This document shows positions 63,244-64,000 of a stretch of 64,000 nt of DNA, piece after piece. A program made the translations under genes and the position numbers. The notes beneath the pieces are model-generated. The model saw only the letters and a list, made by a program, of their open reading frames with translations, made no database searches and was not told where the DNA came from. Each line of letters begins with the position of its first letter. Within the stretch, counting starts at the first letter, position 1. The stretch is taken from the NCBI RefSeq assembly GCF_056746865.1, contig NZ_CM163382.1; one strand, written 5' to 3'.

Positions 63244-63612
63244 ATGAAGAAAATCATTTGTCTGGTCATTACGCTGCTAATGACACTCCCCGTTTACGCG
63301 AAGTTAACTGCCCATGAAGAAGCCCGTATCAACGCCATGCTGGAGGGATTAGCACAGAAAAAGGATTTGATATTTGTGCGTAACGGCGATGAACACACCT
63401 GTGATGAAGCGGTTTCCCACCTGCGTCTGAAGCTCGGCAACACGCGCAACCGCATTGACACCGCCGAGCAGTTTATTGATAAGGTGGCCTCGTCGTCATC
63501 GATTACCGGGAAGCCGTATATCGTGAAGATGCCCGGTAAAAGCGATGAGAACGCACAACCTTTTTTACATGCGCTAATTGCGCAGACGGATAAAACGGTG
63601 CCTGCGCAATAA
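63244..63612 (+). CDS. yfeK: Periplasmic protein YfeK
   Basis: 122-aa ORF with signal peptide ([19 protein letters not shown]). Confidence 0.8.
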
Positions 63613-63614
63613 TC

Positions 63615-64000
63615 TTAAATCCCCGCCCCCTGACTAAAATGCTCTTCCCCAAACACCCCGGTGGAGAGGTAGCGATCGCCGCGATCGCAGATGATCGCCA
63701 CAACCACCGCGCCGGGGTTAGCTTTTGCCACGCGCAGTGCTCCGGCAACCGCGCCGCCGGAGCTGACGCCACAGAATATTCCTTCCCGCACTGCCAGTTC
63801 GCGCATGGTGTTTTCCGCTTCTCGCTGATGAATATCCAGCACCTCATCCACCAGCGAAGCGTTGAAAATCCCCGGCAGATATTCCGCAGGCCAGCGGCGA
63901 ATGCCGGGAATGCTACTGCCCTCTTCCGGCTGCAGGCCAACAATGGTCACCGGTTTGGATTGTTCGCGCATAAAGCGTGAAACGCCGGTGATAGTGCCGG
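63615..64000 (-). CDS. cysM: Cysteine synthase B (O-acetylserine sulfhydrylase B), 3' part; gene continues beyond window end
   Basis: Frame open to the window edge; C-terminal sequence ...GVSSGGAVAGALRVAKANPGAVVVAIICDRGDRYLSTGVF typical of CysK/CysM family. Confidence 0.85.
   Translation of the reverse strand, partial: GTITGVSRFMREQSKPVTIVGLQPEEGSSIPGIRRWPAEYLPGIFNASLVDEVLDIHQREAENTMRELAVREGIFCGVSSGGAVAGALRVAKANPGAVVVAIICDRGDRYLSTGVFGEEHFSQGAGI

Follow-up and report, generated by a model that had tools for sequence, protein, structure and literature searches.

In Escherichia coli K-12, yfeK is reported to be transcribed from a promoter that depends on sigma-E (sigma-24) and to form one operon with yfeS (PMC2685091, PMC11502571). 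The MG1655 genome contains yfeK (b2419, 124 aa), yfeS (b2420, 244 aa, plus strand), and cysM (b2421), with 955 bp separating the stop codons of yfeK and cysM. The cysPUWAM operon ends with cysM, which converges on yfeK. At convergent gene pairs of E. coli, collision-driven termination has been described, in which well-positioned collisions need a stem-loop (bioRxiv 10.1101/2022.10.23.513370). REPs located between convergent genes have been reported to act as stabilizers of 3′UTR terminators (bioRxiv 10.64898/2026.03.23.713779). A further parallel is provided by the hot spots of pan-genomes, where a fixed point between core genes receives different low-GC cargo in each lineage.

The window, by which we denote the whole DNA stretch of 64,000 nucleotides analyzed here, carries the same locus. 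It resembles K-12 in the gene order (ptsI, crr, pdxK, yfeK ... cysM, cysA), in the promoter region of yfeK, and in the C-terminus of CysM, but differs in the interval between yfeK and cysM, which comprises 955 bp with yfeS and a REP pair in K-12 and only 2 bp in the window (Table 1). Direct reading of positions 63600–63620 gives gcctgcgcaa TAA tc TTA aat, in which the TTA at 63615–63617 is the complement of the cysM TAA stop codon, the reverse-strand ORF ending at 63615. Just 386 nt of cysM lie within the window. The region 63140–64000 is 100% identical to that of E. coli strain 118UI, for which RefSeq places yfeK and cysM likewise 2 bp apart, in the order ptsI-crr-pdxK-yfeK-cysM-cysA-cysW-cysT, with a total cysM length of 912 bp; the yfeK product of this identical locus is named "YfeK family protein". 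The protein has a signal-like segment at its N-terminus and belongs to DUF5329 (Pfam PF17263; 108.7 bits versus a cut-off of 27, E=1.8e-31, residues 24–115). The identity of cysM follows from the C-terminus of its product, which is as in K-12, and from the adjoining cysA in 118UI, and the gene was confirmed in related loci by tblastn with K-12 CysM. The sequence, the ORFs, and the 118UI annotation thus agree with the coordinates, the gene identities, and the 2-bp gap that an earlier sequence-only reading of the window had assigned to yfeK and cysM.

Table 1. Features at and around the yfeK/cysM junction in the window.
Feature	Position	Strand	Description
pdxK	62288-63139	-	ORF and annotation; next gene along the direction of cysM transcription
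yfeK promoter, sigma-E type	63183-63210	+	GAAACTT 63183-63189, 16-nt spacer, TCAAA 63206-63210
yfeK	63244-63612	+	ORF, 122 aa; TAA stop 63610-63612; C-terminal tail ...TVPAQ
Empty insertion site CAATAATC	63607-63614	.	Final yfeK codon, stop codon, and 2-bp spacer
Spacer TC	63613-63614	.	2 bp separating the convergent yfeK and cysM stop codons
cysM, 3′ part (cysteine synthase B)	63615-64000	-	Product ends ...FSQGAGI; gene extends past the window end

The same reading had placed yfeS between yfeK and cysM in K-12, an order that MG1655 indeed shows, and had proposed a clean presence/absence difference between strains. When the window junction was searched for by megablast in 5,426 complete E. coli genomes, 5,425 of which hold the locus, an uninterrupted yfeK/cysM junction appeared in 4,038 of the 5,426 (74%), while in the others the match ends at the end of yfeK. 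The yfeS coding sequence was detected by sensitive blastn in 1,387 complete genomes (26%), typically as a single copy (median one); of the 1,400 places that it matched, 1,399 lie on chromosomes. Since the 4,038 contiguous junctions and the 1,387 genomes with yfeS add up to all 5,425 locus-holding genomes, the two states are complementary, and the genomes lacking yfeS at this locus do not carry it elsewhere. The presence/absence difference is as clean as proposed, although its description as a strain-specific absence has to be reversed, because the junction without yfeS is the majority state of the species. With the whole interval of K-12 as the query, the yfeS-less genomes match only the REP portion (query positions 794–940), which is dispersed repeat DNA. 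Within the 64-kb window, yfeS is absent and not relocated: tblastn with K-12 YfeS gave a best E of 3.3, and blastn returned only a REP-like match. This match, at 42741–42832, is 80–89% identical, on both strands, to the REP portion of the yfeS–cysM spacer in K-12 and points to a REP pair (BIME) at this site.

The empty junction is uniform among the sampled E. coli genomes that lack yfeS. All seven complete E. coli genomes with an empty junction that were read (L002 and L005–L010) have the 2-bp gap; L010 is a GTDB representative labelled E. coli that is approximately 90% identical. The junction ...GCGCAATAATCTTAAATCCCC is the same in every yfeS-less genome opened, including O157:H7 and the most divergent match among the complete genomes (92.7% identical to the window). 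The carriers of yfeS include K-12, DH1, B/BL21, and HS; judging from the identities of the K-12, B, and HS strains, our guess is that they belong mainly to phylogroup A. Disrupted copies of both genes were encountered: yfeK is annotated as frameshifted in O157:H7 strain M1300706002 (1605–1972 of that locus), its 3′ end is broken by an IS3-family element in NT1N28 (4421–5583), and yfeS is broken by IS1 in strain LR-03 (NZ_AP027474.1). In view of these three cases, neither yfeK nor yfeS appears to be strongly protected.

Comparison of the junctions in the window and in loci L001–L010 defined the empty allele as ...GTGCCTGCG-CAATAATC-TTAAATCCCC. In the yfeS carriers, CAATAATC is replaced by GAAGGAAATTAATCC, yfeS, the REP pair, and a terminal ...ATTAATCC, and the filled allele of K-12 reads ...GTGCCTGCG-GAAGGAAATTAATCC-GCTTTGGGAAGGCATTTACAGGAGGTAACATG(yfeS)...REP pair...GATGCTATTAATCC-TTAAATCCCC. 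The K-12 cassette of approximately 0.96 kb thus comprises a new five-codon tail of yfeK, a strong ribosome-binding site, yfeS as its sole ORF, and the REP pair. Owing to the exchanged tail, K-12 YfeK ends in ...TVPAEGN and is two residues longer than the window protein with ...TVPAQ; the tail lies outside the DUF5329 domain. The REP pair forms inverted palindromes at the right end of the cassette and folds strongly (z = -3.69; inverted repeat I1). YfeS contains an N-terminal WGR domain (PF05406, E=6e-18). A search of the PDB by sequence with YfeS returned only 2ra8, an uncharacterised Bacteroides protein matching the N-terminal WGR part, and offered no functional lead, and PADLOC assigned none of YfeS, YfeK, and two insert ORFs of E. 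albertii described below to an anti-phage defence family. No terminal inverted repeats joining the ends of the K-12 cassette and no transposase or integrase gene within it were found.

The ends of the K-12 insert are marked by an exact 8-bp direct repeat, ATTAATCC, whose two copies are 952 bp apart. The repeat has the form of a target-site duplication, but it does not exactly match the empty site of E. coli, in which AATAATC resembles ATTAATCC but does not correspond to the product of a simple deletion between the repeats. The same AT-rich 1-kb region contains eight further exact 8-bp direct repeats by chance, so that ATTAATCC is notable for its position alone. Because the empty CAATAATC differs from the GAAGGAAATTAATCC expected on removal of the insert together with one repeat copy, the pair of alleles is accounted for neither by a clean insertion into the empty site of E. 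coli with duplication of the target nor by a clean deletion, and an origin of the cassette in another lineage, or a later change of the sequence, has to be assumed. An empty site reading ...ATTAATCCTTAAATCC in some member of the Enterobacteriaceae would mark the lineage in which the cassette was first inserted.

The direction of change was judged from outgroups and composition, not from a dated tree. A YfeK scan of species-representative genomes yielded 22 loci, which were annotated by tblastn and whose junctions were read. The empty junction GCGCAATAA(T/A)CTTAAATCC is common to diverse E. coli, to the approximately 90%-identical Escherichia lineage represented by L010, which has the E. coli type, and to Pseudocitrobacter faecalis, which reads GCGCAATAAACTTAAATCC. 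The gap is 1 bp in Enterobacteriaceae UBA5654 and approximately 30–35 bp in C. amalonaticus and Superficieibacter sp., and in Escherichia sp. E1V33 the two genes overlap by 12 nt. In this last locus (L011, 1405–1430), cysM ends with TGA and yfeK reads past it to a TGA within cysM, so the spacing can even be negative. The tight or overlapping outgroup junctions indicate that the tight convergent arrangement of yfeK and cysM is old.

The properties of yfeS itself differ from those of its neighbors. Its GC content is 0.39, versus 0.46 for yfeK, 0.57 for cysM, and 0.52 for pdxK. Outside Escherichia, Shigella, and Pseudocitrobacter, YfeS has no named homologue above 58% identity; the nearest ones come from Firmicutes and Bacteroidota (Paenibacillus, Dysgonomonas, Lysinibacillus, Clostridium) and from Fusobacterium, and a single unnamed metagenomic protein is 65% identical. 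In a Pseudocitrobacter MAG (L012), yfeS occupies precisely the position that it has in K-12, together with the same repeat and the same REP pair. Between K-12 and this MAG, the nucleotide identity of yfeS is 95.9%, compared with 80.5% for yfeK and 89.6% for cysM. The contig is genuinely Pseudocitrobacter, since its protein identities to E. coli (66% for the pdxK product and 85% for YfeK) are as in P. faecalis. Presence and absence of yfeS accordingly segregate within Pseudocitrobacter as well, the MAG having the gene and P. faecalis lacking it. Within E. coli, the yfeS alleles of K-12 and B differ by 2.7%, about equal to the divergence of their flanks, which indicates that the gene has been in the species for some time.

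Two further matches to YfeS were set aside. The sole 70% match on an E. coli "plasmid", NZ_CP098226.1 (pZ0117EC0005-3 in PLSDB, 50 kb), is an error-ridden chromosomal copy; the other matches in the search for plasmid or phage copies are distant WGR proteins. Positions 1–8067 of this record hold a frameshift-riddled ptsI-crr-pdxK-yfeK-yfeS-cysM-cysA segment, and the record has the appearance of a long-read contig that was left uncorrected and wrongly labelled as a plasmid, with its 70% YfeS "homologue" resulting from sequencing error. A YfeS variant of 89% identity (P0003) comes from a short-read assembly and represents the same locus.

The flanks were also inspected for an imported haplotype in the yfeS carriers. 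No clear recombination tract could be defined among ten loci, and the K-12 flanks closely resemble those of some strains without yfeS, differing from UK_Dog_Liverpool at 5 sites in the 358 nt of yfeK compared and at none in distal cysM. The last 170 nt of yfeK are 90–94% identical between genera, and cysM is 88–92% identical. Over the last approximately 170 nt of yfeK, P. faecalis is 94% identical to K-12, versus 89% for E. albertii; there are hints of recombination between genera in the 3′ region of yfeK.

Inserts unrelated to yfeS occur at the same point in other Enterobacteriaceae. E. albertii NBRC 107761 (4331–6149 of its locus) contains a 1.8-kb insert of 34.5% GC with two ORFs of 280 and 175 aa on the minus strand, and its YfeK has the altered tail ELKNK. 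In Citrobacter sedlakii (4431–8142), the insert measures 3.8 kb; its two large ORFs (628 and 654 aa) are paralogous, and both products start with a signal-like segment. The 0.5-kb insert of Superficieibacter electus (4473–4895) carries an ORF of 140 aa, with a 4-nt overlap between its end and cysM. All three inserts are bounded on the right by the stop codon of cysM, and in E. albertii and S. electus the tail of YfeK is altered as well, as in K-12. We take this pattern to mean that selection permits insertions only where they fall between the yfeK and cysM coding regions, and not as a sign of targeting. The locus resembles pan-genome hot spots in its fixed point between core genes and in the different low-GC cargo of each lineage, but the cargo here is a single gene, there is no tRNA, integrase, or IS, and the window is unoccupied.

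Taken together, these observations very probably reflect an ancestral empty junction in the window, a yfeS cassette acquired horizontally elsewhere, and convergent gene ends without a terminator. The absence of yfeS would then not be the loss in this strain that the earlier wording implied. The junctions of the outgroups, the 39% GC of yfeS, its distant homologues and patchy distribution, and its identity between genera, which exceeds that of the flanks, all argue that the empty state is ancestral and that yfeS was acquired. The window would thus represent the unoccupied junction, with cysM and yfeK, which has a promoter of the sigma-E type, lying tail to tail, and about a quarter of E. coli, including K-12 and B, would have gained the cassette of approximately 0.96 kb at exactly this point. 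The cassette would be polymorphic in at least two genera, being found at the same point also in some Pseudocitrobacter. Homologous recombination within the conserved flanking sequences may have spread it, which is the simplest route given the similarity of the yfeK 3′ region between genera.

The opposite order of events, in which yfeS is ancestral and was deleted from most E. coli including the lineage of the window, perhaps through the ATTAATCC repeats, is improbable. The direct repeat flanking the K-12 insert could mediate such a deletion, and the E. coli yfeS alleles, being as divergent as their flanks, exclude a very recent arrival. However, the product of a deletion between the repeats would be ...GCGGAAGGAAATTAATCCTTAAAT, but all empty sites that were read have ...GCGCAATAATCTTAAAT. 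The recurrence of this same empty sequence in the approximately 90%-identical Escherichia lineage and in P. faecalis, together with the tight junctions of distant genera, is difficult to reconcile with loss, and so are a GC content of 39% without close relatives in other enterobacteria and an inter-genus identity above that of the flanks.

A cassette that is itself mobile, with yfeS and the REPs forming a unit that a transposase, REP-associated or of another kind, might for example move in trans and that targets the stop–stop junction of yfeK and cysM, would account for the same position in two genera and for the 8-bp duplication. E. coli and the Pseudocitrobacter MAG indeed share the same boundaries, including the repeat, and the REP pair lies at the right end. 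Against such mobility, which we consider highly improbable, yfeS is a single-copy gene situated between yfeK and cysM in every locus read or seen annotated, nearly all of its matching places are chromosomal, and the search for plasmid and phage copies yielded no true one. The unit has no transposase, integrase, or terminal inverted repeats, and the conserved flanks suffice for its transfer by homologous recombination. That an assembly collapse or an annotation error removed yfeS from the window is scarcely conceivable: the junction is the same in 4,038 independently finished genomes, which refutes an artefact, and both the yfeK and the cysM frames are intact with proper stop codons. The acquisition of yfeS at an ancestral empty junction remains the preferred explanation.

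The empty junction also bears on how the two transcription units end. The sigma-E type promoter element of yfeK is identical to that of K-12, the single mismatch in the 107-nt upstream region lying upstream of the element, and the promoter is presumably active in the strain of the window. It is retained there although yfeS, the operon partner in K-12, is missing. No intrinsic terminator-like site was detected on either strand of 63000–64000 (0 found versus 1.3 expected in shuffles), nor on the minus strand of 61600–64000, through pdxK. The lack of intergenic terminator space that the sequence-only reading had pointed out is thus borne out by both the 2-bp gap and the empty scan of the two strands. 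A weak inverted repeat at the end of yfeK, AUUGCGCAG...CUGCGCAAU (63577–63610, 9-bp stem), was considered as a bidirectional terminator hairpin and rejected: it has no U-tract and was not called by the terminator scan. Its z scores are -0.96 on the plus strand and -0.71 on the minus strand, with 34 and 42 of 200 shuffles, respectively, folding at least as well. An Rfam scan of 62000–64000 returned only sub-threshold chance matches, to STnc320 (21.8 bits versus a gathering threshold of 50) and mir-23. There is no REP or BIME at the 2-bp junction of the window, whereas the K-12/B allele has the REP pair.

Without a terminator at the junction, each transcript would be expected to enter the other gene as antisense, untranslated RNA. 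In the empty form, each transcript would run briefly antisense into its neighbor, and read-through from cysM would cross yfeK in antisense orientation and then reach pdxK. As a compositional measure, the C/G ratio is 1.71 in the first 78 nt of RNA past the yfeK stop codon and 2.18 on the minus strand at 63414–63337, antisense to yfeK; the 90th, 95th, and 99th percentiles across the window are 1.54, 1.75, and 2.29. Such C-rich, G-poor RNA is compatible with Rho loading, for which composition is only suggestive. Transcription may accordingly end through the action of Rho on the C-rich RNA, which is no longer translated at that point, through head-on collision of RNA polymerases, or through both. 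The window resembles collision-terminated pairs in that two convergent units meet without a spacer, but well-positioned collisions need a stem-loop, and the junction of the window has neither a significant stem-loop nor a U-tract. With regard to the reported REP stabilizers, the K-12 allele likewise carries, downstream of cysM, a REP pair that folds strongly, whereas the allele of the window has none, and stabilization or insulation would be specific to the K-12-type allele. The K-12 allele thus probably insulates the yfeK and cysM units in a way that the allele of the window does not.

A more far-reaching possibility is that sigma-E-driven yfeK transcription into cysM and cysPUWAM read-through across yfeK, both uninsulated, couple envelope stress and sulfur assimilation by transcriptional interference, an effect hidden in K-12. 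We regard this coupling as unlikely. If true, it would affect about three-quarters of E. coli, and K-12, with yfeS and the REPs as a spacer and insulator, would misrepresent the species.

The difference between the window and K-12 is an ordinary accessory-gene polymorphism, already visible in the standard annotation of thousands of genomes. The point at which the stop codons of yfeK and cysM meet has repeatedly received small foreign inserts across Enterobacteriaceae. In most E. coli, a sigma-E unit faces a cys operon without terminator space, which makes the locus a natural test case for termination by Rho or collision and for insulation by REPs. At yfeK/cysM, K-12 is the atypical strain, so that "missing relative to K-12" is not to be read as a deletion.
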